This document shows, in pieces, positions 5,912-64,000 of a DNA stretch of 64,000 nt. How positions within the stretch are numbered: the stretch's first letter is position 1; every line of letters begins with the position of its first letter. The stretch is from contig JBIIOI010000008.1 of NCBI GenBank assembly GCA_044337025.1, forward strand, positions 43,727 to 107,726. The letters run 5' to 3'. The notes below the pieces were generated by a model, which did not search any database, had not been told where the DNA came from, and saw only the letters and a program-made list of their open reading frames with translations. The stretch comes from Planctomycetaceae bacterium (lineage in GTDB: Bacteria > Planctomycetota > Planctomycetia > Planctomycetales > Planctomycetaceae). The translations under genes and the position numbers were made by a program.

Positions 5912-5967
5912 CGCTGTTCCTTGTCAGGTGGGAGTGTGGTTGTATGTGCAACTATATGGCAAAAAAG

Positions 5968-36500: not shown

Positions 36501-38051
36501 GCGGGAACCGGTTATGGCAGCGGCGGTCAGTTCTCGGTCGGCTTCGGGGGATTGGGACAGCTCCCAATCGAATCGAACCCGCTGATGTCGAACTCGAGTC
36601 CGGACGGACTGGAAGGCCAGCAGCCCGGTGTTCCGAACCATGACTTCCGGGCGTTGTCCGACCTGATCATGACCACCGTCGACCCGGATTCCTGGGAAGA
36701 TAACGGAGGTCAGGCCTCGATCTCGAACCACGGCAGCACGCTGAGCTTGGTCATCCGCCAGACTCAGAAGGTCCACCAGGAAATCGCCGATCTGCTCAGC
36801 CAGTTGCGGCGGCTCCAGGACCTGCAAGTGACGATCGAAGTCCGCTACATCACGATCAACGATCGGTTCTTCGAGCAGATCGGTGTCGACTTTGACTTCA
36901 ACGTGAACGACTCGATCGGCGGTCCAAGCACCGACACGGCGTTCAACCCCTTGCGAGCATTCGGCACCGTCGACCCGGTCAACGGTGTTCAGGGTGGTGC
37001 CGGTCAGACCGGAAACCAGCAGCAGCAGGGTGGCCAGGGTGGCCAGCAGAATCAAGGCGGTCAGCAGAACCAGGGTGGTGCGACTAGCTTCGTGGGTGCA
37101 GTCGGTCCGTTTGCTCAGGGGCCACGGCTCAACATGGTGGGTCGTGATCGGTGGCCATCTCGAACAGTCGTCGGCATGAGTGCTCCCGGACAGTTCGCGG
37201 GTGACCTGGATGTACCGTTCCGGCAAGGTTCGTTCGATCTGGCAGCCCCGGCGTTCGGTAACTTCGACCCAGCTGCGGGTATCCAGTTCGGGATGGCCAT
37301 CCTGAGCGATATCGAAGCGTTCCTGTTTGTGCGAGCCGCACAGGGTGATCGCCGGTCGAACATCATGTTTGCTCCCAAGGTCACGACCTTCAACGGGATT
37401 CAGGCCTCGATCTCCAGCGGTTCTCAGCGTCTGTTCGTGACCGGACTGACGCCTGTATCCTCGGGCTTCTCGATTGGCTTCCAGCCGCAGGTGACTCCGA
37501 TCTTCGAAGGCACCCAGCTCACAGTTCTGCCGGTGGTCTCCGCAGACCGCCGGTATGTCCGCCTGAGCGTGCAGCCGAACTTCCAGAACATCACCGATGT
37601 GCAGACCTTCTCCTTCGCCGGTGGCGGGGCAGGTGGCCTGACCGGCCAGGGTGGCCAAGGTCAAGGCGGATTCGGTGGTCAGGGTGGTGGCCAGGGTGGA
37701 TTGGGTGGCCAGCAGGGTGGTCAGCAGGGTGGCCAGCAGGGTGGTCAGCAGCAGAACCAGAACGGTGGTAACGGCCAGGCCGCTGCCGTTCAGCAGCCAG
37801 TCGTCGCTGTCGTGACAGTTGGTACAACTGTCAGCGTTCCAGACGGTGGTACGGTCCTCCTGGGTGGCGTGAAGTCGCTGAGCGAAGGCCGCAACATGGC
37901 TGGGGTGCCGATCCTGAACAAGATCCCCTACATCAGCCGTCTGTTCCGCAACACCGGTGTCGGTCGCGAAACCAGCAGCCTGATGATGATGGTGACTCCG
38001 CGAATCATTATTCAGGAAGAAGAAGAGCAACTGCTCGGTCTGCCTGAGTAA
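33540..38051 (+). CDS. secretin-family outer-membrane channel (GspD/PilQ-like) with about 900-aa N-terminal extension
   Basis: The C-terminal secretin signature is GVPILNKIPYISRLFRNTGVGRETSSLMMMVTPRII. STN/secretin_N-like modules are present (LHFDNTPLQDVLQHIADNQGIAVVVDAEG...). The signal peptide is MARKSSNPRNADAAPKMGRTLKRFLGLIACGGLVSASIW. The start could be 33294, 33540 or 33588. Confidence 0.85.
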   Translation: MARKSSNPRNADAAPKMGRTLKRFLGLIACGGLVSASIWINSQINAQDPEAGSNPFERYKTNSPAMGKSAKSAKPSDVNRRRVEDQMRQARLALRNGNSEEAQRLATVADNMSRQLKVTFQADEQTPTELLALIQGPVPSDEVQLASSESSGRNVQQAGASDDPHAFVQALLTEAREDIRRGELETARQKIEQASATEVEYGNFDVRPEHVLAELAKKQAASPDGPSDTFAEIQRTPKAGWSDSEAPAPAADPSEAGSSDLKAQATELVALARESLEKGHLEEARAFAMEAQKLDVEYGLLDEHPQHVLAEIERRSKSVVITKRAGKAVPVANTDEGTASKEAALKLLSEARQSLAAGNVKEAKAKASQAQDLDVAYGIFDDTPDLVLQDVRNTESRASIAASRQTGTQNVASSGQKEAALKLLSDARQALKTGDVTKASKLVSQAERIDVAYETFDDRPEIVREDIERLVAGQPGAPAAPASDLSAEDQKKAALSLLKQAREAMELGNSRVAQTKAQQAAQYDVTYDLFEDTPEMILAEVERGAADAVAAKAPEANAMAAAENQFEEAPVLNGSALELYNQGVDSLRQGDRAQAYNAFLAAYQTGEKLDNYRQQQLQDKLRELAPRNQIQQVASEVVEGQDSGHIDMAVQEHEAKFDKLRTETLNSVFRAGNMKERKPDQAKKLLEDQLAAIEASGFAPEQVEPLAGTVRSSLSDVDSYMKQRAPILELERKNAETRELVEREIQTRVRVEQELATLVEKYNDLKEQHRYAEAHALAKQALELDPNNAIAVQMELTAKFAMRNAEIERLKADKEESFYEGLQDVERSAINVLAKGDSIKYDAKRWGDIQNRKASPVDGTEHSAVEERIYSALKAPVSLHFDNTPLQDVLQHIADNQGIAVVVDAEGLNEEGNTASTPVTISVDGIRLESALNLLLKQLHLDYVVENEVLNITSASRRQGDMKAIVYQVADLVTPLNSHQSPTSVLQAGTGYGSGGQFSVGFGGLGQLPIESNPLMSNSSPDGLEGQQPGVPNHDFRALSDLIMTTVDPDSWEDNGGQASISNHGSTLSLVIRQTQKVHQEIADLLSQLRRLQDLQVTIEVRYITINDRFFEQIGVDFDFNVNDSIGGPSTDTAFNPLRAFGTVDPVNGVQGGAGQTGNQQQQGGQGGQQNQGGQQNQGGATSFVGAVGPFAQGPRLNMVGRDRWPSRTVVGMSAPGQFAGDLDVPFRQGSFDLAAPAFGNFDPAAGIQFGMAILSDIEAFLFVRAAQGDRRSNIMFAPKVTTFNGIQASISSGSQRLFVTGLTPVSSGFSIGFQPQVTPIFEGTQLTVLPVVSADRRYVRLSVQPNFQNITDVQTFSFAGGGAGGLTGQGGQGQGGFGGQGGGQGGLGGQQGGQQGGQQGGQQQNQNGGNGQAAAVQQPVVAVVTVGTTVSVPDGGTVLLGGVKSLSEGRNMAGVPILNKIPYISRLFRNTGVGRETSSLMMMVTPRIIIQEEEEQLLGLPE

Positions 38052-49058: not shown

Positions 49059-49196
49059 TTCATCCCGAAGGGATGAGAGATCATAGCCGGTGGCCGAGCG
49101 CAGCGAGTCCACCGGTCATGATCCGCTTGCCAATCCATCCCGGCGGGATGGGAGAGGGGCAGTTCGCCGGAGCGTTCTCGCATCCCTGCCGGGATG
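49059..49196. promoter_or_regulatory. three palindromes with the shared core CATCCC-N3/4-GGGATG (49059-49075, 49134-49150, 49179-49196); candidate regulator-binding (UAS) sites
   Basis: Seen in the sequence. They lie between the sigma-54 activator gene and the metzincin-like gene and are spaced about 75 and about 45 bp apart. Confidence 0.4.
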
Positions 49197-49426: not shown

Positions 49427-51169
49427 ATGTTCGCGTTCGTCCTGCGCCATGTTGCGTTTGCCTGTGGTTTGCTGGCGACGGTGACGAGCCTGTCCGCCGG
49501 GACGCGAACCTGGGATGGCAAGCACTCGACCGAGCAGATCGAAGTCACGGTCGTCTACTTCCTGCCCAGCGATCGTCAGCCGCTGCCCGATTGGAAGGAC
49601 CGCGTCGACTACTATGCCGAGCGGATCACGCAGTTCCATGCGCGCGAGTTCGGCGATCAGTCGACTCTGACCACCATCGTTAAACCCGAGCCGTTTCGCT
49701 CCGCTCGCACGACCGAACAGCTGCGCGGCGGCGATGCGAACTTCATCTTCTTCCGGACCCTGGAAGAGGTCCATGAGGCCCTGAACTTCGGGGCGGGCGA
49801 GCACAAGGCGTTTCCGATCCTGCTGGTACTTAGTGACATCAACTGGAAACCGCTCGATGACTTTTACCGGCTGCGGCCCGGTTCGAAGGGGCTGGAGCAT
49901 GAGGGCAACATGAGTGGCCAGCGTCACTTCCCCGGAGCCGAGGGTGGTGGTGCGCGGGCCACGTACCTCGCCGATCGTGGAATCGGCTGGGGGCTGGTCA
50001 GCGGCGATGGCTGGCGGGTTCCGTATCGAGGCAGCGACTGCGTCGTCTACCACGAGGGCGTCGGCCACACGGTCGGACTGCCGCATCCCGAACCCGGGAA
50101 TCCCTCGGTGATGAGCCTGGGACAGTATCACGGCTGGATCAGCGAGTCGTTCCTCGACGACGACCAGAAAGAACGGATGAAGTGGACCAAACCCGCTGCC
50201 CCAGTCCGGCCTTCTCTGTTCACCAGGTTCCGGGCAGTCCCCGAGCCCGATGGTCCGAAACCCGGCGAGGCGGTTTGGCTCCGCTGTGACTGGCCCGATG
50301 AAGCCCAGTTGCAGACCTGGAAGGTCCGCGTGCAGACTGACATCTGGGGCCCTTGGCACGACATCGAATCGCCCGTCCCCGCCGATGGCCACACCCCAGA
50401 GATGATCTCGCTGGGCACGTTTGATCGCCCGACCCCCGTCAGCTACCGGATCGACGCGACTCTGAAGGATGGCCAATCGGTTGAGCTGTGGGGCTACCTG
50501 CAAGTTCGAGCCCACGAGGACCAGCCGCCGCTCCCTCCGTTCCCGCTGCCTGACCTTGTACCCGCCGGGCGCAACGCGGAGGCCTCCACATTTCTTGGTC
50601 CGGCATCGGCTCCCGACGTGGAGCTGTTACCACTGGTCAATCTGGACCAGGACTCCGTCAGTGGAAAATGGTCATTGGAGGATGGCGTGCTGACCTCACC
50701 CAAAGGGTACGGAGCGCGCGTCCAGCTTCCCTACTCCCCACCCGAGGAGTACGACCTGACCGCCATCGTGGAGCCGCTGGATGAACCGAACGGTTTGATC
50801 CTGGGCCAGCGCAGCGGCGGCCAGCGGTTCCTGGTGCTGCTCAGCTACCAATCCGGCGAGTCCTCCGTCAGCGCTATCGAGAACATTGACGGGAAGAACG
50901 TCGGCAACGTCTCGACCCACGGCGGCCCGGTCTTCGTGAAAGGCCGCCCGGCTCAGGTGATCTGCTCGGTCCGAAAGACCAGCGTCCAGGTCCAGGTCGA
51001 CGGTCGTACTGTCATCAACTGGACCGGCAAACCGTCTCAGCTGTCGCTGGGTGAATACTGGGAAACACCGAACAAAGAGACGCTGTTCCTGGGCGCTTAC
51101 GACTGCCGGTACCGAGTCACCCGTTTGACCCTGACTCCACGCACCGGCGAGGGCAAGAGCACACGTTAA
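49427..51169 (+). CDS. hypothetical secreted metzincin-like zinc metalloprotease with a C-terminal beta-rich domain
   Basis: The signal peptide is MFAFVLRHVAFACGLLATVTSLSAG. VVYHEGVGHTVGLPH is an extended HExxHxxGxxH motif. Confidence 0.6.
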   Translation: MFAFVLRHVAFACGLLATVTSLSAGTRTWDGKHSTEQIEVTVVYFLPSDRQPLPDWKDRVDYYAERITQFHAREFGDQSTLTTIVKPEPFRSARTTEQLRGGDANFIFFRTLEEVHEALNFGAGEHKAFPILLVLSDINWKPLDDFYRLRPGSKGLEHEGNMSGQRHFPGAEGGGARATYLADRGIGWGLVSGDGWRVPYRGSDCVVYHEGVGHTVGLPHPEPGNPSVMSLGQYHGWISESFLDDDQKERMKWTKPAAPVRPSLFTRFRAVPEPDGPKPGEAVWLRCDWPDEAQLQTWKVRVQTDIWGPWHDIESPVPADGHTPEMISLGTFDRPTPVSYRIDATLKDGQSVELWGYLQVRAHEDQPPLPPFPLPDLVPAGRNAEASTFLGPASAPDVELLPLVNLDQDSVSGKWSLEDGVLTSPKGYGARVQLPYSPPEEYDLTAIVEPLDEPNGLILGQRSGGQRFLVLLSYQSGESSVSAIENIDGKNVGNVSTHGGPVFVKGRPAQVICSVRKTSVQVQVDGRTVINWTGKPSQLSLGEYWETPNKETLFLGAYDCRYRVTRLTLTPRTGEGKSTR

Positions 51170-51293: not shown

Positions 51294-52424
51294 GTGCATT
51301 CGACAATTGTCGAACCGCCCGACACACTGCGAAGGCGGAATTCTCCGCCGGTCTCGTTTTTCCTCTGGAGTCCCGCCCTCGTGGCGATTTCTCAGCCACT
51401 GACTGTTTCCGAACTGCTGCTGCTCAATGAGGAGCTGCGGTTGGCGCTGCGTTCTGGGGTCCCGCTTGATCTGGGGCTGCAGGATTCGTCGGGGCACCTG
51501 CCGCGCCGGCTGGCGCGGCTGGCGGAGCAGTTGGCGACGCATGTCAGCGAGGGACAATCGCTGCCAGCCGCCCTGGACCGCCTGGATCCCCCTCCGCCGG
51601 TCATCTATCGGGTCCTGGTCGCAGCGGGACTTCGCGGAGATCAGCTGGAGCGGGTGTTGACCCAGCTCGACGAGTTTGGGCGTGTGCTGATTGAGATGCG
51701 CGAGGCGCTGCGCCGGGCGATGATCTACCCCATGTCGGTGCTGATCGTCGGATATGCGGTGGCCTGCCTGACGATCCGGTTTGGAGTTCCTCCGCTGCGG
51801 GATTTTCTCGTCGATCTGCGAGCCCAGCCCAGTCCGCCGATCCAGGCGATGTACTGGCTGAACGAGAATTTCGCGGTCTGGGCGATCGGGTTGCCTGTGG
51901 CGTTCTTTCTGCTGACGGGTGCCGGTGTGCTGTACGACTGGGTTCAGTCCGGTCGACTGGGATCTCTGGGGCTCTTGCGGTTCGTGCCGGGGCTGAACGC
52001 CGTCCGCAAGAACTTTGAGATGTCGCAGCTGGCTCACCTGTTGTCGATTCAAGTGGAGCATGGAGTCCCGCTCCCCGAGTCACTTCGCCGCTGTGCCGAG
52101 TTTGCGGGTCACGGCCGTTTGGGTCGCGACTGCGAGAACGCCGCACAGCAAGTCGAAGCGGGAGCCCCGATTACACAGTTCCAATCCGCCCCGCCGTTTC
52201 TGCAATGGATCCTGACGGTCCCCGTGTCGCAGTCAGAACTCGTCGCGAACTCGCGTCAGGCGGCTGAGCTCTACCGGGATCGCACGGCGCTACAGGCCGA
52301 GTGGATCGCGCGGGTCATTCCAGCGGTTCTCACGCTGGGACTGGGAACACTGATCGTGGGAGGATATGGCTGGGTGGTGATGGACAGTCTCGCGGTTGTC
52401 TGGAAAAGGTTGATGCATGAATAG
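51294..52424 (+). CDS. type II secretion/type IV pilus platform protein F-family paralog 1 (GspF/PilC-like)
   Basis: 376 aa with a GTG start. T2SSF-like repeats are present (LRLALRSGVPLDLGL; LAHLLSIQVEHGVPLPESL), and 3-4 TM segments. Confidence 0.7.
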   Translation: MHSTIVEPPDTLRRRNSPPVSFFLWSPALVAISQPLTVSELLLLNEELRLALRSGVPLDLGLQDSSGHLPRRLARLAEQLATHVSEGQSLPAALDRLDPPPPVIYRVLVAAGLRGDQLERVLTQLDEFGRVLIEMREALRRAMIYPMSVLIVGYAVACLTIRFGVPPLRDFLVDLRAQPSPPIQAMYWLNENFAVWAIGLPVAFFLLTGAGVLYDWVQSGRLGSLGLLRFVPGLNAVRKNFEMSQLAHLLSIQVEHGVPLPESLRRCAEFAGHGRLGRDCENAAQQVEAGAPITQFQSAPPFLQWILTVPVSQSELVANSRQAAELYRDRTALQAEWIARVIPAVLTLGLGTLIVGGYGWVVMDSLAVVWKRLMHE

Positions 52425-53451
52425 CCGCGATGAACTGCCGTCTGAGGAGGATCTGCCGGTCGAGGCAGTCCAGCGTCTGGTTCAGGCCGGAATGCCGCTG
52501 GCGCACGGGCTGCGAGCTTACGCCGAGGAGTTCCCGTCCAAGTCGGCCACCGCCCTGCGTCAATTGGCCCAGGCGGTCGAGTCCGGGACTCCGCTCAGCT
52601 CAGCCATCCAGCAGCCGGGAATTTCGATCCCGACTTACCTCGCCGGACTGATCGAAGGAGGGCTGCAGTCGAACATGATCGGAGTGATGCTGGAGCAGTA
52701 CCTGCATCAAAGACGCCGCCAGCGCCGGCTGGGACAGAGGGCCGTTCTCGACTTCGCCTACCCGCTGGTTGTGCTGCTGCTTTCCTGCGTGATCGGGTTT
52801 GCGCTGCTGACATGGCTGGTCCCGATGTTCAGAGAGATGTTCGATGACTTTGGCATCGAACTGCCATTCATCACGCGATTCGCTTTCTCATTGTCCTCCG
52901 CAGCATTGCTCCTCAAGTGGCCCATCATGCTGGGGCTGGTCGGCGCGGCGCTGACGCTCATCGTCTTGTTCGCGGGGTCGCGCTGGACGATTGCGGTGTT
53001 TGATCGCATTCCGTTCCTGGGGCGATCGGCTCGGTATGCCACGATGGCCGAGTTCTGTTCGTTGCTGGCCCCCCTGGTGCAGGCCGGCGTGCCGATCACT
53101 CGCTCGCTGCAGGCTGTCGCGTCTGCGATGCAACCTTCGATGGTCCGATCGGGCACGATTCACCTGTCTGCATTCTACGACGGCTCCGAGACGCTGGCCG
53201 ACCTGGCGGATGAGCGGCGTCTGCTGCCAGCGGAACTGGTCCACCTGCTCCGCTGGGAAGATCGCGGGAACGCCTTTGCGGAGATCCTGAAGTCCTGGTC
53301 AGAGCTGTTTAGCCGCATGGCGTCGGGCCACTCAGCCAAGGTCTCGGCACTGCTGGCACCGCTGCTGATGCTGGGGATCGGGATGTTCGTTGGATTACTG
53401 GTGATCGCGTTGTTTATGCCCCTCGTCAAGTTGCTGAACGAATTGTCCTGA
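52417..53451 (+). CDS. GspF/PilC-family paralog 2
   Basis: 344 aa. It overlaps the preceding gene by 8 nt. The T2SSF repeat RQLAQAVESGTPLSSAI is present, and the C-terminus LVKLLNELS matches that of paralog 3. Confidence 0.75.
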   Translation: MNSRDELPSEEDLPVEAVQRLVQAGMPLAHGLRAYAEEFPSKSATALRQLAQAVESGTPLSSAIQQPGISIPTYLAGLIEGGLQSNMIGVMLEQYLHQRRRQRRLGQRAVLDFAYPLVVLLLSCVIGFALLTWLVPMFREMFDDFGIELPFITRFAFSLSSAALLLKWPIMLGLVGAALTLIVLFAGSRWTIAVFDRIPFLGRSARYATMAEFCSLLAPLVQAGVPITRSLQAVASAMQPSMVRSGTIHLSAFYDGSETLADLADERRLLPAELVHLLRWEDRGNAFAEILKSWSELFSRMASGHSAKVSALLAPLLMLGIGMFVGLLVIALFMPLVKLLNELS

Positions 53452-53460
53452 GACTCACTC

Positions 53461-54981
53461 ATGTGGATCGTGCTGCTGACACTCCTAGTTCCGCTGGTCG
53501 GAGTCGCCTTACTGGTGGCCGACGCCTGGCGACAGACTGCGCTGCCGTTTCACACGCGCCAGGTGTGGACCCATGCGGTGCAGGGGGCGAGCGTGATCAG
53601 CCTTGCACTGGCTGCAGGATTGGTTGTCTCCGCGCTGATCGTGTCGTTGGATGCGACTCAGCCATGGCTGCTCCTGCTGCCACTGCAGGGGATTCTCGCG
53701 TTCATCGTCGGTGGCACGGGCTATCTGGGGCTGCATGTGCCGCGCTCCTGGCCGAAGGACAACGAGGACTGGGACGACCCCGCGGTGATCGAGCGCTGTA
53801 CACCGCATTCTCTCCTGGATCACCAGACCACCGCGCGACTCCGCAGCGGTGCCTGGGTCATGGTGCTCTATCCGCTGCTGTTCCTGGTTCCAATTCTGGG
53901 GTTCTTCGGAATCGCTCTCTTCCTGCTTGGCACCATAACGCTGACGACCATCGTTCATGTGCGACGCGGGTTCCAGTCACAGCTGTTGTGGCTGCTCGCC
54001 ATCGCTCTGCGGCATCAGTTGCCGCTGTCTCCCGAGCTGCGACAGCTTGGCACTCGACGTGGTGTCAGTGTGCGAATACGGCTCAATGAGGCCGCGAACA
54101 ATCTGGAGGGCGGCGATCCGCTGTGGCTCGTCCTGGAGCGTGCGCGGCTGCTGCCCGCAGCTGCAGTATCGGCCATTCGGGTGGCTGAAGGCGGCGGGCG
54201 GCTGGAAGAGACCGTCCGCCGGCTGGCGATCAACTCGACGGAACGGTTGAAGGTGTTCAGTCTCTCGGGACTGAGCGACGTGCTGACCCAGTTCATCGTG
54301 ACTCTCATGGCGATGGTGGCGATCACGGGATTCCTGATGTACTTCATCATTCCCAAACTCAAAGATATCTTCGAGGGGTTTGATGTCGAGTTGCCAGTTC
54401 CAACGCAGGCCCTGACCAACAGCAGCAACTACGTGGTGAATCGCGGCTTCACCCCGGTCATTTTCTGGGTCGGGCTGGCGCTCGTCAGTCTGGTCTGGAT
54501 GCTGCTCCGACATATCGTGGGGTGGAGTTCCCTGTCGGTGCCGATTCTGATGCACTTCCATCCGCGGCGCGACGCCCCGGAGATATTGCGAGTCCTCGCG
54601 GGGTTGATTCGGGACCAGGCCGCGCTGCCCGAGAAACTCAAAGACCTCTCGCACCGACGCGGGCGGCCTGACCTGGGTGCCCGTTACCACCGCATGGGCG
54701 ACCGGCTGATGGCGGGGGAGTCACTCTCTCTGGCCTTGTTCAACGAGGGGGTGCTGAGCCCCGCACAGACCGAAGCGGTGGCTGCGGCGGAACGGGGAGG
54801 ACATCTGGAGTTCGTACTGTTTGCGATGGCGGATGCCCTGGAACAGCGTGAGTTTCGGCAGAGTTCCACTTGGGCGGAACTGGTCAAGCCGGTGTCTACG
54901 CTGATCTGTGCGGCGCTGGTCGGGTTCTTCGTACTCGCCTTCTTCCTGCCGCTGGTCAAGTTGCTGAAGGAGTTGAGCTAA
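53461..54981 (+). CDS. GspF/PilC-family paralog 3 with an extra N-terminal TM region
   Basis: 506 aa. ...LLWLLAIALRHQLPLSPELRQLG...AIRVAEGGGRLEETV... is present. The C-terminus is LPLVKLLKELS. Confidence 0.7.
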   Translation: MWIVLLTLLVPLVGVALLVADAWRQTALPFHTRQVWTHAVQGASVISLALAAGLVVSALIVSLDATQPWLLLLPLQGILAFIVGGTGYLGLHVPRSWPKDNEDWDDPAVIERCTPHSLLDHQTTARLRSGAWVMVLYPLLFLVPILGFFGIALFLLGTITLTTIVHVRRGFQSQLLWLLAIALRHQLPLSPELRQLGTRRGVSVRIRLNEAANNLEGGDPLWLVLERARLLPAAAVSAIRVAEGGGRLEETVRRLAINSTERLKVFSLSGLSDVLTQFIVTLMAMVAITGFLMYFIIPKLKDIFEGFDVELPVPTQALTNSSNYVVNRGFTPVIFWVGLALVSLVWMLLRHIVGWSSLSVPILMHFHPRRDAPEILRVLAGLIRDQAALPEKLKDLSHRRGRPDLGARYHRMGDRLMAGESLSLALFNEGVLSPAQTEAVAAAERGGHLEFVLFAMADALEQREFRQSSTWAELVKPVSTLICAALVGFFVLAFFLPLVKLLKELS

Positions 54982-55401
54982 GTGTTCTCTCGTACAAGCA
55001 CACCGCAGAACGTCGCGAGATCAACCCGAGCTGGCATGACACTGCTGGAAGCCACTGTGGCGCTCGCGGTCGTGGCCATCGTCGTGGCTGCCATCATTCC
55101 AGTCCTGTCACGAACGGCCCGGATTCGGGATCAGGTCGAGCACCGCGAAGTGGCCCTGCAGGCCGTAGCCAATCTGCTGGAGCGGGCTGCGGTCCTGCCC
55201 GAGCGGACAGAGACCAGCCTGCAAGCTGTTGTTGCGACCGTTCTGCCTGCAGATCAGCTCCCGCAGCCAACATGGGTCTTCACTGTGCAGGCTGAAGAGC
55301 CCGCCCTGCAGCGAATCGAGGCCCAGCTCACCTGGCAGCACAGTGGCCAGACTCCTCGCTCGGTGTCACTGGTCCGCTGGTATCCCGGAGGACAGCCATG
55401 A
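54982..55401 (+). CDS. pseudopilin (prepilin-type N-terminal cleavage/methylation domain)
   Basis: Leader ...ARSTRAG followed by the mature N-terminus MTLLEATVALAVVAIVVAAIIP (Glu at +5). GTG start; AAGGAG lies about 10 nt upstream. Confidence 0.7.
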   Translation: MFSRTSTPQNVARSTRAGMTLLEATVALAVVAIVVAAIIPVLSRTARIRDQVEHREVALQAVANLLERAAVLPERTETSLQAVVATVLPADQLPQPTWVFTVQAEEPALQRIEAQLTWQHSGQTPRSVSLVRWYPGGQP

Positions 55402-55913
55402 AGCGGGATACCCGACTTGTCCGTGAACGCCGACGCGGCTGGATGCTCGTGGAGCTGCTGATCACGCTGACACTGATTGCTATCGCGGGAGGCACTGCCG
55501 TTTTCCTGATCGCTCGCATGCTGCGCACCAGCCAGGTGCAGGCTGATGCGCTGGTTCTGAACCGGACCTTGCATGAGTGGGAGGACCAGTTCCGTCAGGA
55601 CAGCCGTTCTTCCCAGACGGCCCGAGTGCTGACGGGGGCCACCCCCTCGATTCAGTTCCAACAGGGCGAGACCCGCGTGACGTATCTGTCGGTGGCTGCT
55701 GGCATCGAACGGCGAGTCAACGACCAGTTGGCGGGGCGCTGGCAAACGCGCGGTGAGTGGCAGTACACACTGGACGAGAGTGCGGGAATCGTGAGGGCAG
55801 AACTGCATCGTTCGTACGAGCTGTCGTCCTCCGAGCAGCTGACGAAGGGACAGAAGGAACTGCCTCGGCGTCGTCTGCTCCGAGTTGAAGCTGCGATCGG
55901 GAGGACGCCATGA
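55398..55913 (+). CDS. pseudopilin-like protein
   Basis: Leader MKRDTRLVRERRRG followed by WMLVELLITLTLIAIAGG (Glu at +5). ATGA overlap with the preceding gene. Confidence 0.65.
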   Translation: MKRDTRLVRERRRGWMLVELLITLTLIAIAGGTAVFLIARMLRTSQVQADALVLNRTLHEWEDQFRQDSRSSQTARVLTGATPSIQFQQGETRVTYLSVAAGIERRVNDQLAGRWQTRGEWQYTLDESAGIVRAELHRSYELSSSEQLTKGQKELPRRRLLRVEAAIGRTP

Positions 55914-56335
55914 AGGGCCGACCAACATCTTCATCGTGGCATCGCATTCGTCGTCGAGGGCTGGCTTTGTTGTCAGCTCTCGTCTGTGTGGTGGTCCTGG
56001 CCGCTCTGTCGCTGACGCTGACTCGAACGGTTCTCGCCCGCGTCCGTGAAGCCGAACTGCACCACCAGCGGCTGCAAGCGAATGCTCTCGCCGAATCCGC
56101 CTACGTGCGAGCCCAGTCGCAGTGGCGAGCCAACCCGGACTGGACCGGAGAAATCTGGTCCCCGAAAGCCGAAGGGCTCTTCCAGCTGCAAGCCGAGATT
56201 CGAGTCCCAGCTGCGGATGCCGAACCGCAGCTGCACGTTGTCAGCCAGGTCAGTGCCGGTCCCGATTCGGTCGTACGTGTCGAACGCCGTTTCCCCTGGC
56301 CCCCCGCCCCGAAGTCACAGGTCGCCAACCCATGA
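55910..56335 (+). CDS. pseudopilin-like protein lacking Glu+5 (GspK-like N-terminus)
   Basis: Leader ...HRIRRRG followed by [21 protein letters not shown] overlap. Confidence 0.5.
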
Positions 56336-57237
56336 ACACAGCCACGAATACGCCTGGCGCTCGGGAAGTCTCTCCGTGGGGATCATCGATGCGGCATGGG
56401 TTCACGCTCATCGAACTGCTCGTCGTAATCGCCATCATCGCGGTTCTGATCGCCCTGCTGCTGCCCAGCGTGCAGCAGGCCCGCGAGGCGGCAAGGCGAT
56501 CACAGTGCCAGAACAATCTGCTCCAGCTGGGCCTGGCGCTGCACGATTACCATCTGGCCCATCGGACCTTTCCGCCCGGGTCCGTCAATCTCACAGGCCC
56601 CGCTGACAATACTCGATCCGGTTACAAACATGGCTGGGGCGTTCAGATCCTGCCGTTTCTGGAGGAACCGGCTCTGGCCCGGGCGATCGATCCGAATCGG
56701 GGAATCTTTGAACAGGTGCAGACCGACCTGGGACTGCTCGCCCCCTCCACATTCAGCTGTCCGAGCAGCCCGTTGAATTTCTCCTCGACGGGCGGGCGGG
56801 GATCGTACGCCGGATGTCACCATGATCAGGAGGCCCCCATTGATGTCGATCAGAACGGCATGCTGTTCCTCAACAGCCGAGTAACTCTGAATGACGTCGA
56901 GGACGGGCAGCAGTACACCCTGCTGGTCTCGGAAATGCGCGACCACGGTCACTGGGCGGCGGGGAATCGACTGTCGCTCCGCAATACGGGGGCTAAGATT
57001 GACAACCTGAAGAACGTCACTGCTCCGACTGGGCCAATCGCCACAGCGATGACGGTCGAAGAACTCGACCCGGTCCGCAAGAGTCTGCACGTCGGCGGCT
57101 TCGGCAGCTATCACTCGAACGGAGCGAATCTGCTGATGGTCGACGGATCGATCCGGTTTGTGAATACGAGCGTGGATACTGCGATCTACCAGCACCTGGG
57201 CAATCGCCGGGATCATCAGATCATCGGGGAGTTCTAA
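56332..57237 (+). CDS. DUF1559 (H-X9-DG) protein with prepilin-type N-terminus
   Basis: ...[44 protein letters not shown]...[19 protein letters not shown] is present. ATGA overlap with the preceding gene. Confidence 0.8.
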
Positions 57238-57239
57238 CG

Positions 57240-58307
57240 ATGACGATCCCGCATGCACGCACGCGACACGGCTTCACGCTGATCGAACTGCTGGTCTCGA
57301 TTGCGATCATGGCCATCATCGTGGCAATGACGATCCCCGCTGTTCAGGGGGCACGACAGGCGGCTCACGCCATCCGCTGCCGGGGACAGCTCGCTCAGCT
57401 GGGGCAGGCGTTTCACGCTTACCACCTCGCGCAGGGATCACTCCCCGCCGGCTCCGTCGACTTGAAGTCGCCCGCCATCGCGGAGCCCAGTCGCTTCGTT
57501 TGGGGCTGGTCGTTACAGCTGCTTCCGCATCTGGGCGAAGGGAACCGCTACCGGGCGCTGGATGCCAAGCTCGGGATCTTCGCAGCTCCCAATGCGCAAG
57601 TCCTGGCGAAGACGCCGTCTCTCTTTCAGTGCCCAGGCAGCAGTCGGAACGACACGATCGGATACGCGGGCTGTCATCACGACCGGACCGGCGAGATTCA
57701 CGAATCGAATACGGGAGTGCTGACCCTCAATAGCCACGTGCGGTTTCAGGACCTGCCGGATGGAATGCATCAGACGATCCTGCTGGGTGAAGCTGCCGAG
57801 GTCCGGTGGGCCGAGGGAGCTCATGGGAGCCTCCGCAGCACGGGCGAGCCGTGGGTCAAAACACACACGCGAGCCCCCCTCACCGCCGAGGAGGAAGCGA
57901 AGCTGCAGAGCATCCAGGAATCGATCCGCGCGGAGGAAGAAGAGCTGGAAGCCGCGCGATTGACCTATGTCGATCAGGTTCAGTCGGATTACCCGCCTCC
58001 GCCGCCGATGGTTGAACCGATCTCCAGCGACGACGAGGAGATGTTTGCGGCCGAGGAAAGGTCTGGCTTGGAGATGTGGGAGATGGGAGCGGAATCCGGG
58101 ATGGGTGATGGAAGCGTGCCTCCCCCGCCGCCCGCGCCCGAGTCGCTGCCCGCTTCGCGAGCCTTCGGGTTCTGGACAGCTCACCAGGATGGGGGCCATT
58201 TCCTGCTCGTCGATGGGTCGGTCCGCCTGATCTCTCAAAGTGTGGATCAGGAAGTCCTGCGGCGGCTGGCGAATCGTCGGGACACTCGCGATCCGGGAGA
58301 GTTCTAG
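57240..58307 (+). CDS. DUF1559 protein with prepilin-type N-terminus and an acidic/Pro-rich insertion
   Basis: [51 protein letters not shown]...[16 protein letters not shown]. The insert is [21 protein letters not shown]...PPPPPMVEP...PPPPPAPE. Confidence 0.8.
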
Positions 58308-58308
58308 G

Positions 58309-60144
58309 ATGTCCCCACGGAACATCAGCTCCTGGAAATTCGCGGTCTTGTGCCTCGTCATCTGGTGCGGTTTGGCAGAGCGCAGCTGGGCCCAGAGTGA
58401 TGACTCCGAAGCGGACATCCAGATCGTCGACGCCAAGTGGGGCTTTGACGGCCACGTCCGGCACAAGACGTTCGTGCCACTGCGAATCATCATCAAGAAT
58501 CGCGGCATGCAGCCTCGCACGCTGCTGTTGCGGCTGACTCGCGCGGATGCGTTCAACGCGATCGGAGAGTCCATCGAGCAAGAGATCACGATCTCCGCCG
58601 ACACGACGCGGCTTGTGCAGATGACACCGTTTGTTTCCGACCCGGGAGAGTCCTGGACCCTGCGCTGGGGTGACTTGGATCTGGAATCCCACACAATCAA
58701 GGGGATCTCTGCCGATGACGGGATCTGCCTGATCACGAGTTCCCGAGAGATCTCGCAGCGTAGCGGATTCCTGTCCACGATGGATGAGGACGAGTTCCCG
58801 ACCTCGGTCACGGGGCTCGATGCGCTGCGGTTCCTGTTCCTCGATCACGAACCCCAATGGCCCCCGCCACGCCGCAAGGCTCTGGAAGAGTGGCTGCTCA
58901 AGGGGGGCACCGTCGTGATCTTGAACCGGGCCGATGGCAAGGCTCCCGAGTTCATCGAGATGCCGTTTCTCAATACAACCGGTAAGGCGACCGCGTATGG
59001 CCAGGGGGTGATCCTCCGGCTCCAACAGACGCCGGTCTCGATCACGAAGAAGTTTCTTGAGGAGCAGATACTCGGTCGGTCGATGACCAGCGGGGATCTC
59101 GACCAGCGGCTCAAGGCCTACAACCAGACAGTTCCGCAAGGGAGTTCCTGGTGGAATGGCAGCTTCGAACTCGCCACCTACTCTCGCGATCAGGTGTTGA
59201 CCCAGTTGATGGACGTGGCCGGGACCCGCCAGCGCTGGGGACTGATCTACCTGACGCTGCTGATCTATGTCGGCTGGCAGTGGCGTATCGGTTGGCGCTG
59301 GGGGTTGATGGAGAAACAACCGAACCGACACTACGCCTGGTTGTTCGGTCTGGCTGTGGCCTTTTCGCTGATCTTTTACTTCTCAGGCCGCTCTGGATAT
59401 GGGAACGACCGCGTCCGCTCGATTGTCGTGGCCAAGCGGATCTCGGCGGGTCTCTTCGATGTGGAGGGCTGGAGCGTGATGGCCACCAGCCTGACCGGTG
59501 ACCGAAAAGAGATCTCGTTCCCCGGCACCGGACAGCTCTACGGCGGAGCCGAGTCGTTCGGCCAGAATCCCATCACGATTCGCGACGGCAAGATGCAGGT
59601 GGAACTCAATGCGTTCTCCTCGCAGCGACTGGCATTTCGCACTCGCGTTGAGATGCCGGACATTCCGTTCCAGCTTCAAGCTTCCGGTCCCGATATGTGG
59701 CAGAGCAAATCGGCCCGACTGGTGATCGACCCGGCCTACCCGGGGAACGTCTACGCCGCAGTCGTGGCGATCGAGGACAGTCTGTACGAATTCGAACCCA
59801 AGCTCGGGGCACTGGCTCCAACAACCCACTGGTCCGAGAAGACTGAGTACTGGCTCCACCCGCAGAACCCGCGCAGAAATGTCTGGCGGTTCTCACTCTT
59901 CAGCAGGCTCTTCGACTGGCGAATGACGGAAGAAATCTACCTAGAGGCGTTCTCAAGCGTCGTGGGGAACGGATTCAACGTCGGCTCGAACGTCTACCCG
60001 GACTCGTTTGTCGTCCGTCCTGGGTACGCCCGCGTGATGCTGTTTGTTGACTGGCCTGCAGAGCTGAACTGCCAGGGCACCTTCGGGGACCAGGGGGGAC
60101 GCATGCTGTATGTGCAGGACGTCCCACTGGGGGGCCGACCATGA
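58309..60144 (+). CDS. hypothetical signal-peptide protein with a central hydrophobic segment (611 aa)
   Basis: The N-terminus is MSPRNISSWKFAVLCLVIWCGLAERSWAQS. The ATG lies 1 nt after the preceding stop. Internal TM-like segments occur around WGLIYLTLLIYVGW and YAWLFGLAVAFSLIFYF. Confidence 0.5.
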   Translation: MSPRNISSWKFAVLCLVIWCGLAERSWAQSDDSEADIQIVDAKWGFDGHVRHKTFVPLRIIIKNRGMQPRTLLLRLTRADAFNAIGESIEQEITISADTTRLVQMTPFVSDPGESWTLRWGDLDLESHTIKGISADDGICLITSSREISQRSGFLSTMDEDEFPTSVTGLDALRFLFLDHEPQWPPPRRKALEEWLLKGGTVVILNRADGKAPEFIEMPFLNTTGKATAYGQGVILRLQQTPVSITKKFLEEQILGRSMTSGDLDQRLKAYNQTVPQGSSWWNGSFELATYSRDQVLTQLMDVAGTRQRWGLIYLTLLIYVGWQWRIGWRWGLMEKQPNRHYAWLFGLAVAFSLIFYFSGRSGYGNDRVRSIVVAKRISAGLFDVEGWSVMATSLTGDRKEISFPGTGQLYGGAESFGQNPITIRDGKMQVELNAFSSQRLAFRTRVEMPDIPFQLQASGPDMWQSKSARLVIDPAYPGNVYAAVVAIEDSLYEFEPKLGALAPTTHWSEKTEYWLHPQNPRRNVWRFSLFSRLFDWRMTEEIYLEAFSSVVGNGFNVGSNVYPDSFVVRPGYARVMLFVDWPAELNCQGTFGDQGGRMLYVQDVPLGGRP

Positions 60145-61688
60145 CCCCGCTGGGACTGCTGACTCTGCTTGGACATTCCTTACGGCACGAGTCGCGCAGC
60201 CGCGCTGCGCACTGGTTTCGGATGGGGAGCCTGTTCATCGCGACGTGGCTGCTGATCTCGGCTCATTATTCGTCGTGGGCCGTCGGATCGGTCGGTCGAA
60301 CATTTATCGAGTCGCTGACGTATCTCAATCTGCTGCTGATCGTGATTGCCGGCAGCAGTTACTTTGGTTCAGTCATCACGGAAGAGAAGGAACAGGGCAC
60401 GCTGGGACTGCTCAAGCTGGCGGGGTTCTCGAATGCCGGGCTGATGCTGGGCAAATCGACAGCTCGAATTCTCTCGGCCCTGGTGATCTTCGGGATGCAG
60501 CTGCCGTTCGCCTTTCTGGCGATCGTATTGGGAGGGATCTCGGCTCCGAGTATCTTCGCAGCCTATCTGGCACTGGGGGCCTATCTGATCTTTCTGGGGA
60601 ACGTCGGCCTGCTGATGTCGACCGTGTGTCGACGCAATGCTCTGGCCACGTCGACGACATTCTTGATCGGGGCCCTGCTGGTCTGGGGCGGAAAGATCGC
60701 TGCGTTCAGCAGCACCGCAGGGATCGCCAAAAGCGTCGGCTGGGTCGGCAGTGCCGTGGACAAGTTCACGGAGTTCGAGTCGTGGTTCTCCTTGCATGAG
60801 AGATTGCGCGAGATCATCACGGTTCGAAATGCCCCCATCGTGACAGCTCAGTTCTGGGTTTCGCTCGGACTGGCGGCCGGACTGTTCGGTTTGTCATGGC
60901 TGCTGTTTGACCGCTTCACGGAGTACACCGAGAGCATCGATCCGCACCGTTCCGGTTCCAAATGGGCGAGGTGGCAGCTGGCAGTTTCGCGCCCCTGGCG
61001 AAACGCACTGGCCTGGAAGGAGTACCAGTTCAGCACCGGCGGGCACACCACATTCGGCTTGAAGCTTGTGCTTTACGCCGCAATCATCGCGAGCGGCGTG
61101 GTGCTGCGGGACTGGGGCGAGAAGAAATATGGAGTCAAGCTGCCGGATCTGGTGTTTGGTTCGATCTGCGGAGTGTTCCTGCTGGAGTGCCTTGGCTTCT
61201 CCGGGACCTTCCTGGGCAGTGAGTACGTTGGTGGCACGCTGCCCAACCTGATCCTGATGCCAAAATCGGTCGCCCGGATCGTGGCTGCCAAGCTCTTCGG
61301 CGGGCTGATATCCGTGTTGCCAACCGTGATCGCGATCGTCGTAGCCAGCCGATTTCTGCCGCCAGATACGATCTTGTTCGACTGGCGCACGCGGGATCTC
61401 GTGCTGGTGACGAGCTATCTGCTGCTGCTACATCTCACCGCGTTCTATTCGATCCGCGTACGACGCGGCGCGATCGCCTGGGCGGTCGGCACGCTGATTA
61501 TCGGAGGAGTGGTCGTCGTGCCGCTGCTCGAAATGGTGCGGATGTCGCTGCTGCCCCTGGGGAGGAAAACTCCCTGGCAGGAACCGGGAGCCGAGTACTG
61601 GGCTCCGCTGACTTACATCACCGTGATGTTCTGCCTGGCCCTGCAGGTGGGGATCGGCGTTCGCTTGAAGAATGCCGTGGGCGAGTAA
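60141..61688 (+). CDS. ABC-2 family transporter permease (double-length, about 12 TM)
   Basis: 515 aa with an ATGA overlap. The ABC-2 signature region is SVITEEKEQGTLGLLKLAGFS. Confidence 0.6.
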   Translation: MTPLGLLTLLGHSLRHESRSRAAHWFRMGSLFIATWLLISAHYSSWAVGSVGRTFIESLTYLNLLLIVIAGSSYFGSVITEEKEQGTLGLLKLAGFSNAGLMLGKSTARILSALVIFGMQLPFAFLAIVLGGISAPSIFAAYLALGAYLIFLGNVGLLMSTVCRRNALATSTTFLIGALLVWGGKIAAFSSTAGIAKSVGWVGSAVDKFTEFESWFSLHERLREIITVRNAPIVTAQFWVSLGLAAGLFGLSWLLFDRFTEYTESIDPHRSGSKWARWQLAVSRPWRNALAWKEYQFSTGGHTTFGLKLVLYAAIIASGVVLRDWGEKKYGVKLPDLVFGSICGVFLLECLGFSGTFLGSEYVGGTLPNLILMPKSVARIVAAKLFGGLISVLPTVIAIVVASRFLPPDTILFDWRTRDLVLVTSYLLLLHLTAFYSIRVRRGAIAWAVGTLIIGGVVVVPLLEMVRMSLLPLGRKTPWQEPGAEYWAPLTYITVMFCLALQVGIGVRLKNAVGE

Positions 61689-61742: not shown

Positions 61743-62462
61743 CTAAGGCTTGTCGGGTTCCACAAGCGTTGGCTCGTTGTTCGTCGAATCGACGGTCTGG
61801 CGGGGCTTGGTCACCAGAATCTGCGGCTTCACACCGTCATGAACTCGAACCTGGCTGATCATCTCCTGCTTCAGCAGAGTCCCCATCGCCTTCTTCAGGT
61901 TCATCAGAGCCAGAGAGTAGGTCAGCTTCGAGTTGGCAAAGTCCGACTCAGCCTGGGTGGCCTTGGCCTGGGCCTCCAGAAGAGTATTCAGGAACAGCGG
62001 GCCGCTCTGATCCTCGCCGGGTAGTTTCTCCCAGCGATTCTTCAGTGCGCCGACTCGCTCCACTGCGGCGTTCATCGATTGATACTTGAGCTGCATCTCG
62101 GCGTAACTGGTTTCCACTTCGCGGACCGCGACTTCCGCCTCCAGGCTCAAAGTCGCGATCGTCGTGGCGAGCTGACTCTGCATCTGACGCAGCTCCAGCT
62201 CTCGACGTGAGTAGCGACCTCGGGCCTGGCGATTTCCGATTGGGATGTCGAACATCAGACCGGCATTGGCACTGGGACGCCCGCTGGAGAACTGGTCGAC
62301 CCAGGCATCCGACATCTGAAAGTCGCCCTGCAGTCCTTCGGCATAGACACCGAAGACCGCGTTGAGCTGTGGCAGCAGTTCGTTCTTCGACATGTTCAGT
62401 CGAATGCCAGCCGCGTGAACCTGCTTGATGTTCTGTTGAATCTCGGGCCGCTGCGCGATCGC
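61743..62462 (-). pseudogene. C-terminal half of a TolC-family outer-membrane efflux protein; N-terminal half absent
   Basis: The minus-strand ORF reads ...AIAQRPEIQQNIKQVHAAGIRLNMSKNELLPQLNAVFGVYAEG...VETSYAEMQLKYQS...LEAQAKATQAESDFANSKLTYSLALMNLKKAMGTLL, i.e. OEP repeat 2. Upstream of about 62462 the minus-strand reading is antisense of the SdrD-like repeats and shows no TolC similarity. Confidence 0.55.
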
Positions 62463-62492
62463 GGTCGTCTGCACATCGGCCAGTTCAAACGG

Positions 62493-64000
62493 AATGTTGA
62501 TGGCAACGGCACCACCGACGTCACGTTGACCGACACGACGGATGCCAATGGGAACTACCTGTTCAGCAACCTCCCCGTGGGCGACTACACCGTCCGGGTG
62601 ACCCCGCCAGCGGGATTCGACCAGACGTTCGATGCCAACGGAGCCCTCGACAACACGTCGATCCACACGCTCGGTGCAGGCGAGAACAACGTCGCTCAGG
62701 ACTTCGGCTACACCGGCCAGGGGTCCATTGGTGACCGCGTCTGGTTTGATGCCGACCAGGATGGAGTTCAGGACGCGGGCGAGCCGGGCTTCCCGAACAT
62801 CACGGTTCAGCTGGAAGTCGATCTCAACGGCGATGGCACCGCCGACTACACAACGACAACGAGCACGGACAACAACGGCAACTACCTGTTCCAGGATCTG
62901 CCACCGGGAGACTACACGATCTCGGTGCTGACCCAGCCCTCGGGAGCCACGCCGACCTTCGACGCGGACGGAGGACTGGATCAGACCTCTGCTCTCACAC
63001 TCGGGGTCAACGATGACAATCTGGCTCAGGACTTTGGATACAAAGGGGCCGGTTCGATCGGCGACCGCGTGTGGCTCGATCTCGATGGGGACGGAGCACA
63101 GGACCTTGGCGAGCCAGGTATCGTGGGCGCGACAGTCCAGCTTGATCTGGACCTGACCGGGGACGGCGTGGCCGATTACACCACGACGACGGTCACCGGA
63201 GTTGACGGACAGTATCTGTTCAGCGAGCTGCCGGTCGGAGACTACACGATCACTGTCACTCAGCCAGCGGGCACGGTGCAGACATTCGACAACTCCGGAG
63301 CGCTCGATAACGCCTCGCAACATACGCTGGGAGCCGATGAAGACAACGTTGCTCAGGACTTCGGGTATCAGGGCACCGGCTCAATCGGTGACAAGGTCTG
63401 GTTCGACCAGGACGGAGATGGAGTCCAGGACGTCGGCGAGAATGGGATTGTCGGAGTCGATGTCGCTCTCGACATCGACTTCAACGGCGATGGCACCTTC
63501 GACGCCACGCTGACGACGACCACCGACCAGAACGGGAACTACCTGTTCGACAATCTTCTGGCTGCAGACTACACCGTGCGAGTCACTCCGCAGGTGGGGT
63601 ATGTCCAGACATTCGACAGTGACGGTACTGCCACCTCGAACGCCTCGGACCACACACTGGCCGCCGGGGAGAACAATACGGCTCAGGACTTTGGCTATCG
63701 CGGCACCGGTTCGATCGGCGATCAGGTCTGGCTGGATCTCGACGGAGACGGCGTGCAGGACGGTGGGTTGGAAGTCGGTTATCCGAGCGTGCCGGTCCAG
63801 CTTGACATTGACTTCAACGGCGATGGCACCATCGACCAGACGTTGAACACGACAACCGACGCGACGGGGAACTACACGTTCAACAATCTGCTCCCGGGTG
63901 AGTACACGGTCACCGTGACTCCGCCGAGTGGGACGACGCAGACGTTCGACAACGACGGGACCGGGACAGCCAACGTCTCGCAGGAGACACTGGCCCCGGG
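62493..64000 (+). CDS. SdrD/Cna-B-type repeat array (about 110-aa period; DxDGDGxxD Ca-binding-like motifs); no start codon or N-terminus identifiable; runs off the window end
   Basis: The frame opens after a TGA at 62208-62210. Periodic units ...GSIGDRVWFDADQDGVQDAGEPG...DLNGDGTADYTTTT.TD.NGNYLF..LP.GDYT..VT.P.G...TFD.DG... repeat about 4.5 times. There is no Met anywhere in the frame. Confidence 0.6.

Follow-up and report, generated by a model that had tools for sequence, protein, structure and literature searches.

Organization of the locus

The locus described here lies in a stretch of 64,000 nucleotides (nt) from contig JBIIOI010000008.1 of a Planctomycetaceae bacterium, referred to below at its full length as the window. 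It comprises ten tightly packed plus-strand genes (51294/51381–61688), the first three of which encode GspF/PilC-type platform proteins. Open reading frame (ORF) listing and translation yielded, in order, the platform paralog Fa (51381..52424; 347 amino acids (aa) as called on identical public contigs), the second paralog Fb (52417..53451; 344 aa), which shares its first 8 nt with Fa, and the third, Fc (53461..54981; 506 aa), which carries an N-terminal extension of ∼170 aa made up of membrane helices. They are followed by pp1, a PilV/GspI-like minor pseudopilin (54982..55401; 139 aa), by a further minor pseudopilin, pp2 (55398..55913; 171 aa), and by pp3, a GspK-like minor pseudopilin without Glu5 (55910..56335; 141 aa), with ATGA overlaps between pp1 and pp2 and between pp2 and pp3. 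DUF1559a (56389..57237; 282 aa) is the pilin-like DUF1559/HX9DG protein of what will be presented as the conserved core, and DUF1559b (57240..58307; 355 aa) is its paralog with an acidic, proline-rich insertion. The last two genes encode p611, an envelope protein of 611 aa for which no known family was matched (58309..60144), and p515, a putative double-length permease of the ABC-2 type with ∼12 transmembrane helices (60141..61688; 515 aa), the start of which forms another ATGA overlap with p611.

All ten genes proposed by an earlier, sequence-only reading of this DNA (three GspF/PilC paralogs, pseudopilins, DUF1559 proteins, a large protein and a permease) were found on the plus strand, and several details had to be amended. 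The 376 aa given for the first product correspond to the longest Fa ORF, which begins with a GTG at 51294; the gene stands, at a length of 347 aa, since gene callers start it at 51381 on identical contigs. The overlaps of 4–8 nt said to separate the genes exist at four of the nine junctions (8, 4, 4 and 4 nt); the remaining five are gaps of 9, 0, 53, 2 and 1 nt, the gap of 53 nt lying between pp3 and DUF1559a and that of 1 nt between DUF1559b and p611. The C-terminal motif common to Fb and Fc is real, the two proteins ending with PLVKLLNELS and PLVKLLKELS, respectively. The GC content is uniform across the window, and several metagenome contigs were found by exact-sequence look-up to carry the locus. 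When the operon was scanned for simple promoters and terminators, the counts equalled those of shuffled controls.

Three ancient paralogs of the platform protein

Each of the three GspF-like products contains two Pfam T2SSF (PF00482) domains, with E-values of 4.8e-27, 4.9e-27 and 1.9e-20 for Fa, Fb and Fc and scores of 73–95 bits against a cut-off of 25.2. The hidden Markov model (HMM) check therefore confirms their membership in the GspF/PilC superfamily. Equivalog models were not reached: the GspF model TIGR02120 gave 71 (Fa), 132 and 87 bits against a cut-off of 424, and the PilC model 29–96 bits against 700. Fb aligns end to end with PilC of M. xanthus (3jc8; 2.9e-22, residues 20–340). Pairwise identity among Fa, Fb and Fc is only 20–23%, and they must therefore be ancient paralogs and not recent duplicates; all three have orthologues in distant lineages, at 26–54% identity.

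The extent of the Fc family became visible only by exhaustive HMMER searching of 1.84 billion representatives, word-index protein searches having stopped at ∼30% identity. The Fc profile retrieved 2599 matches at E ≤ 1e-30, the best 150 of which all score at least 271 bits, as compared with ∼112–116 bits for ordinary GspF and MshG. Among these best 150 representatives, 82 are 450–600 aa long, 46 are 330–449 aa long and 15 are 761–850 aa long.

A conserved core of seven genes

Relatives carrying all ten genes were fetched through homologues of p611, and more distant ones through Fc. The same ten genes, in the same order, occur in metagenome-assembled genomes (MAGs) labelled Planctomycetaceae or Planctomycetota, each gene matching best the window gene at the same position. 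The flanks of these loci differ, and the arrangement is therefore not a product of chance. Distant relatives keep only the first seven genes, Fa-Fb-Fc-pp1-pp2-pp3-DUF1559, again as position-wise best matches. This order is present in every related locus with enough flanking sequence (L005/L014, L006, L010, L011, L016, L018/L019, L020 and L024); L021–23 show it by gene order only, and Fb and Fc are merged into one gene in L025 and L026. Orthologues of Fa occupy the first position in L005, L006, L010, L011, L016, L018, L020, L024, L025 and L026, and positional orthologues of pp1, pp2 and pp3 were found in all related loci. Cultured Thalassoglobus neptunius (GCA_007859735.1, locus L024) has the order Fa-Fb-Fc-pp1-pp2-pp3-DUF1559-p652-p516. 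DUF1559b is missing from L018, L020, L021, L024 and L026.

As these comparisons show, the operon is a composite of a seven-gene core and the lineage-specific genes DUF1559b, p611 and p515. The view of the ten genes as one indivisible unit has to be given up; conservation of the core across Planctomycetota, distant lineages included, is borne out. The earlier suggestion of a lineage-specific pseudopilus or secretion apparatus is likewise supported, by the HMM matches, by the conserved neighbourhood and by the fact that no paper describing it was found. In the literature searched, nothing was found on this system, on an assembly machine specific for DUF1559 proteins or on multiple full-length platform genes. 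A survey of the type IV filament superfamily reports more than one platform gene only as TadB/TadC, a fission product, and as some archaeal pairs (PMC6668835).

ATPase, prepilin peptidase and secretin

When the large ORFs in the window were scanned with Pfam, no T2SSE ATPase, no prepilin peptidase (A24) and no PilT were detected, in agreement with the statement that the operon lacks a GspE/PilB-type ATPase. Pfam and NCBIfam models of GspC/L/M and PilM/N/O/P did not match any of the ten operon products. The window does contain a single secretin, located ∼13 kb away as had been noted. Its ORF spans 33294-38051 on the plus strand, and it is not a conserved neighbour; the genes in between are unrelated and include miaA, an LptF/G gene and an amine oxidase gene. 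The protein is unusually long (1585 aa); a good match to the Pfam Secretin domain is limited to its last ∼100 residues, and STN is matched faintly near residue 960.

A short GspE-type ATPase gene lies directly upstream of Fa in three related lineages (L018/L019, L025 and L026). In L018/L019 it encodes 406 aa, overlaps the start of Fa by 4 nt and has the Walker A sequence GPAGSGKT together with a tetra-Cys motif; with 361 bits to TIGR02533 as against 35 bits to the TadA-family model, the protein is of the GspE/PilB type. The ATPase of L025, whose gene adjoins Fa, is 52% identical to that of L018, and in L026 a T2SSE gene of 425 aa precedes Fa. Assembly frameshifts affect both the T2SSE and the Fa genes of L025. 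No T2SSE gene was found near the operon in the window lineage or in L005, L006, L020 and L021. Since the ATPase adjoins Fa in relatives, its absence here is not a property of the system, and its gene must lie elsewhere in the genome of this organism. The comparison of loci shows that the system has a dedicated family of assembly ATPases, the gene of which has presumably moved out of the locus in the window lineage.

Channel motifs and natural Fb::Fc fusions

PulF was modelled and cross-linked as a trimer by Guilvout et al. (PMC10790770). In their model, Tyr168-Pro in transmembrane segment (TMS) 1 and Glu370-Pro in TMS3 line the central channel, and both motifs were reported to be conserved across GspF/PilC (PMC10790770). 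None of the three paralogs keeps both in full. Fa retains the Tyr-Pro of TMS1 and has a hydrophobic residue in place of the TMS3 glutamate (hydrophobic-Pro). Tyr-Pro is also kept in Fb, where the glutamate is replaced by alanine in the window protein and the TMS3 motif reads Ala/Gly/Thr/Gln-Pro across lineages, with Glu in one lineage. In Fc, TMS1 has Tyr or Gln without the proline and TMS3 has Arg/Lys/Gln-Pro, the residue being Lys in the window protein. Counted over the 150 representatives, the TMS1 position of Fc is Tyr in 131 and the following Pro is present in 7; in TMS3, 9 have Glu and 63 Arg or Lys, and the second Pro is found in 144. These deviations are specific for each paralog and stable across lineages.

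Natural fusions of Fb with Fc account for 15 of the 150 best Fc-family representatives, so that at least 15 protein clusters are of this kind, and are 774–839 aa long. Their N-terminal halves match best the Fb profile (157–245 bits) and their C-terminal halves the Fc profile (157–231 bits). On a cleanly called contig of 522 kb (L026), the operon reads T2SSE-Fa-Fb::Fc-pp1-pp2-pp3-DUF1559, so that Fa and Fb::Fc again make three platform units in total. The linker contains three hydrophobic segments in 12 of the 15 fusions, and in the AlphaFold2 model of stand-alone Fc (predicted local distance difference test score of 75) the first cytoplasmic domain is preceded by five long helices. Both counts are odd, which fits an Fc N-terminus that continues from an outward-facing C-terminus of Fb. 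One further match to the Fc profile (P0205, 1342 aa) apparently reads through from Fb::Fc into pp1-/pp3-like sequence, with a garbled stretch in between; a frameshift or a wrong gene call is a more probable origin for it than a genuine giant fusion.

Pilin-like components

The three small proteins have prepilin N-termini of the G|(M/W/L)xLxE type and class III signal peptides, with leader ends RAG|MTLLE (pp1), RRRG|WMLVE (pp2) and RRRG|LALLS (pp3), the last being the protein already recognized as lacking Glu+5. pp1 matches N_methyl (9.4e-5) and, below cut-off, PilV (5.1e-8) and GspI (3.6e-6); pp2 has a weak N-terminal match to GspH (9e-4); and pp3 matches the N-terminus of GspK (8.1e-7) and PilX_N (0.059). 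Similarity of pp1–pp3 to PilV/GspI, GspH and GspK is confined to the N-terminus. The absence of Glu5 from pp3 fits the tip-cap role played by GspK.

DUF1559a gave matches to SBP_bac_10 (2.9e-51), N_methyl (7.4e-8), TIGR04294 (7.6e-8) and the N-terminus of GspG (6.4e-10), and DUF1559b to SBP_bac_10 (6.4e-33) and N_methyl (2.5e-8), with the TIGR04294 HX9DG C-terminal domain also present. With PF07596, PF07963, TIGR04294 and a GFTLIELL motif, both are members of the DUF1559/HX9DG family, and the HMM check for N_methyl and SBP_bac_10/DUF1559 is thus positive. Neither reaches the GspG model TIGR01710 (39 and 38 bits, respectively, against a cut-off of 88.85), the match covering only the N-terminal 61–66 residues. 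Solved homologues of DUF1559a (GspG, PilE, geopilin) cover only helix alpha-1, the first ∼60 residues, and none was found for the rest of the protein. DUF1559a and DUF1559b are 46% identical. The sole DUF1559 gene of L018, L020 and L024 matches DUF1559a best; DUF1559a is presumed to be the major subunit.

Proteins of this kind are abundant in planctomycetes. Genes combining N_methyl and SBP_bac_10 number at least 41 per Planctomycetales genome; their products occur in membrane fractions, and 25 of the 91 of Tuwongella were detected in detergent-soluble fractions (PMC8567305). In P. limnophila the DUF1559 family comprises 68 paralogs, of which two are essential (PMC10632474).

The p611/p515 pair

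p611 consists of a signal peptide, a periplasmic domain, a two-helix membrane hairpin and a second periplasmic domain; one of the periplasmic domains is possibly ThuA/GATase1-like. The GldG/ABC_transp_aux model (PF09822) remained unmatched, even at an E-value of 10, in p611 and in its Victivallis and T. neptunius homologues. p515 matches ABC2_membrane_2/3/4 at 3e-5 to 2e-4, scoring 21–24 bits with PF12679/PF12698/PF12730 as against gathering cut-offs of 27–31.6 (23.8 against 27.2). Its orthologue in a Victivallis MAG (CAZRKP010000003.1, L017; 2e-29 to p515), which is preceded by an ABC_tran gene, passes the cut-off with 29.2 bits, whereas p515 itself stays below the gathering score. The orthologues in L005 and L024 also have ABC2_membrane matches. 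A profile scan of genome contigs with p611 found only close MAG relatives and one Victivallis match; in T. neptunius, p652 is homologous to p611 (8e-56) and p516 to p515 (2e-64).

The Victivallis homologue of p611 (24% identical) lies within an ABC-transporter cluster without GspF, in the order ABC_tran, four double ABC-2 permeases, p611 homologue, ABC_tran, p515 orthologue. An ABC ATPase gene in cis to p515 was found neither in the window operon nor in the L005, L006 and L024 loci. Judged by gene order, p611/p515 seem to derive from an ABC module whose ATPase gene was lost when the pair became part of the pseudopilus operon. The Victivallis cluster (2149-14263 of L017) combines two genes for ABC ATPases with a p611 homologue and five paralogous double-length ABC-2 permeases, and a gene for a 712-aa protein of no known family stands before it. 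Taken by itself, such a multi-permease ABC system is unusual.

A model of the apparatus and its alternatives

We propose, with a probability of about 0.6, that the products of the operon make up the core, in the cytoplasmic membrane, of an apparatus that is specific to Planctomycetota, belongs to the type IV filament superfamily and is related to type II secretion systems, type IV pili and Com pili; in it, a hetero-oligomeric platform would assemble DUF1559 pseudopilins. Fa, Fb and Fc would together form one hetero-oligomeric platform, most simply a 1:1:1 heterotrimer, that replaces the homo-oligomer of GspF/PilC, and pp1, pp2 and pp3 would form a priming or tip complex. Acting through this platform, a GspE-type ATPase would polymerise DUF1559/HX9DG subunits (the operon's own copies and plausibly many paralogs encoded elsewhere) into a short periplasmic or envelope-spanning pseudopilus, whose output may lie in secretion, in surface display or in the capture of substrates. 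For the ATPase, for the prepilin peptidase and for any secretin, the genes would lie elsewhere in this organism. p611 and p515 would be a pair recruited from an ABC-transporter module to serve as an accessory envelope component. A single hetero-oligomeric platform is suggested by the strict co-occurrence of the three paralogs, by the ratio of three platforms to a single ATPase gene and a single set of pilins, by the fusions and by the complementary divergence of the channel motifs. A more specific version, in which Fa-Fb-Fc is an obligate asymmetric 1:1:1 heterotrimer dedicated to the assembly of DUF1559 proteins, with a constriction rebuilt without Glu and with one Arg/Lys contributed by Fc, is put forward tentatively, as we consider it somewhat more likely to be wrong than right.

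Several points weigh against the proposed platform. A gene fusion denotes functional linkage and not stoichiometry. All three paralogs lack the glutamate that the PulF work suggests to be important, and the platform may accordingly work differently; some of the three may be regulatory. Classical alignment proteins (GspL/M/C or PilMNOP) were not detected in the operon, and the ATPase, the peptidase and the secretin are without an assignable gene, the search having covered the 64-kb window. We infer co-transcription of the operon from gene spacing only. Finally, the T2SSE-family gene that lies one gene upstream of the triple-platform operon of T. neptunius (4849-6378 of SIHI01000016.1) encodes a protein with a degenerate Walker A motif in which the Lys is replaced (GPPMSGVT), only 24% identical to the L018 ATPase; this protein may be a catalytically dead GspE-like partner.

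The three paralogs could alternatively belong to three machines standing side by side, each with its own homo-oligomeric platform and its own ATPase and all drawing on a common pilin set; extension, retraction and a second filament could then each have a platform of their own. In favour of this, planctomycete genomes contain many GspE/PilT paralogs (P. limnophila has eight GspE-like genes), the essential Plim_0410-0407 genes include three ATPase genes beside one GspF, and none of the three platform proteins is incomplete, as both T2SSF domains are present in Fa, Fb and Fc alike. We nevertheless find such a division of labour improbable. The three genes are together and in the same order at every locus examined, the ATPase-linked loci have a single ATPase gene per three platforms, the fusions place two platforms in one polypeptide, and no paralog has the full Tyr-Pro and Glu-Pro pair of homo-oligomeric PulF. 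One set of three minor pilins with one GspG-like DUF1559 gene also fits one machine and not three. It is still harder to maintain that the locus is an ordinary type II secretion system (T2SS) with a recently duplicated platform gene, the extra copies of which are redundant or decaying. Public sources might give that impression, the products being annotated simply as PulF, PilC or T2SS F-family protein; the low identity among the paralogs and the orthologues of each in distant lineages, the GspF equivalog scores, the absence of GspC, GspL and GspM, a major subunit of the DUF1559 and not the GspG type, and the intactness of all ORFs in many genomes make this explanation very improbable.

A different question is whether the ten genes comprise two unrelated adjacent units, the pseudopilus core and an independent ABC exporter made of p611, p515 and an ATPase acting in trans. 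The core does occur without p611/p515 in L018, L020, L021 and L026, and the Victivallis homologues reside in a pure ABC cluster, where two ABC_tran genes and a further four double permeases are found but no GspF. Against this, the pair follows the DUF1559 gene(s) at the same position in the window clade, in L005/L006 and in T. neptunius, although across these three Planctomycetaceae groups p611 identity falls to ∼45% or lower and the flanks differ. Moreover, the ABC ATPase gene that stands between the two in Victivallis has been lost in all three groups, and only 1 nt separates DUF1559b from p611. Independence of the pair therefore seems unlikely to us, though less so than the three-machine arrangement. 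p611/p515 may work with the filament, for instance as substitutes for the missing GspL/M/C-type envelope partners, or independently with a trans ATPase.

Regulation and neighbouring genes

The genes upstream of the operon had been described as those of a sigma-54 activator and a metzincin-like protease. Both lie there, yet they are not conserved neighbours in relatives. The 580-aa protein encoded at 49427-51169 (plus strand) has a predicted signal peptide and an HEGVGHTVGLPH motif (HExxHxxGxxH, metzincin-type), and no Pfam or NCBIfam match was obtained for it; its gene adjoins the operon only on contigs carrying an identical Fb protein. Control of the operon by the neighbouring activator was considered and rejected, as no TGGCAC-N5-TTGCW site with ≤2 mismatches precedes Fa or the 580-aa gene. 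Counts of this element across the window equal chance, a GG-N11-GC element at ∼51219 has the wrong spacing, and no −24/−12 promoter was found before the operon.

The activator gene and the 580-aa gene are 510 nt apart, and three CATCCC-N3/4-GGGATG palindromes are clustered there within 135 nt (49061-49196). These compare with 0.05 expected and occur nowhere else in the 64 kb. The palindromes might serve as binding sites of the activator or constitute a small element, either structured or like a repetitive extragenic palindromic (REP) sequence; no −24/−12 promoter was found downstream of them. On the other side of the operon, a minus-strand ORF of 526 aa (61743-63323) extends too far. The match to OEP/TolC is confined to the C-terminal 216 aa (61743-62393), which amounts to half a protein and may be a remnant, and the remainder overlaps the plus-strand gene of a 1701-aa SdrD_B/CarboxypepD_reg repeat protein (62415-64000, start at ∼62415) that runs off the window.

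Comparison with known systems

As judged by family models, the locus belongs to the type IV filament superfamily and does not qualify as a canonical T2SS, type IVa pilus, Tad or Com system. It differs from the type IVa pilus in the sub-threshold PilC equivalog scores, in the absence of PilM/N/O/P from the operon and in the absence of PilT from the window. The Tad/Flp system with TadB-TadC, together with archaeal Epd, is the sole case described in the survey of more than one platform gene per filament machine (PMC6668835). However, TadB and TadC have one T2SSF domain each and stem from the fission of a two-domain gene (PMC6668835), whereas here two domains are present in each of three proteins, so that the copy number has been tripled and not split; furthermore, the ATPase of the relatives is of the GspE/PilB and not of the TadA type. 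The Com (ComG) system resembles the locus in being a minimal single operon of ATPase, platform, major pilin and a few minor pilins, devoid of PilMNOP and GspLM. It has, however, a single ComGB, another pilin fold, a function in DNA uptake and a monoderm host, and the cut-offs of the ComGB and ComGC-G models were not reached here.

Within the planctomycetes, the closest described case is Plim_0410-0401 of P. limnophila, which encodes GspE, PilT, GspE and GspF along with six planctomycete-specific proteins and is essential by transposon sequencing (Tn-seq) (PMC10632474). It likewise resembles a type IV filament operon, has lineage-specific genes downstream and precedes the gene of a repeat-domain protein; its three ATPase genes and one platform gene are the reverse of what is found here. 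The window locus could not be mapped onto the P. limnophila Tn-seq data, given this opposite make-up and a T2SSF paralog group (Plim_0407, 0156, 0425, 1294) without a tandem triple. The essential cluster is followed by Plim_0400, a 'conserved repeat domain protein', just as a repeat protein follows the window operon. PilM (Plim_0076) and the next two hypothetical genes also scored as essential (PMC10632474 supplement). Essential type IV filament-like genes are unusual among bacteria. For p611 and p515, the nearest likeness is to ABC-2 transporters of the GldA/GldF/GldG type, which have a large accessory membrane protein, as p515 is paired with p611 and its big periplasmic domains. The likeness is architectural only. 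p611 contains no Pfam domain, ABC_transp_aux/GldG included, p515 appears to be two permeases fused into one, and there is no cis ATPase.

DUF1559 proteins constitute the largest paralogous family in many planctomycete genomes (41–100 genes) and are expressed and membrane-associated. The apparatus proposed here is the first concrete candidate for handling DUF1559/HX9DG proteins. As far as we have found, a platform of three paralogs, or of one plus a fused two, coupled to DUF1559 subunits is undescribed in the literature searched.

The most instructive comparison is with the T2SS, as exemplified by Klebsiella Pul. The two have in common the polytopic two-domain T2SSF platform, a GspG-like N-terminal helix on the major subunit, a minor pseudopilin set that includes one protein without Glu5 (as GspK) and, in relatives of the window locus, a GspE-type zinc-finger ATPase encoded upstream. 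They differ in the number of platform genes (three here as against one) and of minor pseudopilins (three as against four), in the lack of GspC/L/M, in the DUF1559/HX9DG globular part of ∼250 aa carried by the major subunit, in the altered channel motifs, in the unreached NCBIfam equivalog cut-offs and in the absence of a secretin or peptidase from the locus. The oligomeric state and role of GspF/PilC are among the least settled points of type IV filament biology, a dimer having long been assumed. Three full-length paralogs that are always together, or one with a two-in-one fusion, are the gene-level signature to be expected of a trimer, and the system is a natural test case for the number of platform subunits in such machines, allowing subunit-specific mutagenesis that is impossible in homo-oligomers. 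Should the asymmetric heterotrimer prove true, it would represent a motor of type IV filaments whose three-fold symmetry is broken, and independent natural evidence for GspF/PilC trimers, and it would provide a handle on the purpose of DUF1559 proteins, for example as capture or display fibres in the enlarged planctomycete periplasm. The trimer model of PulF offers the natural frame for viewing the three paralogs in this way.

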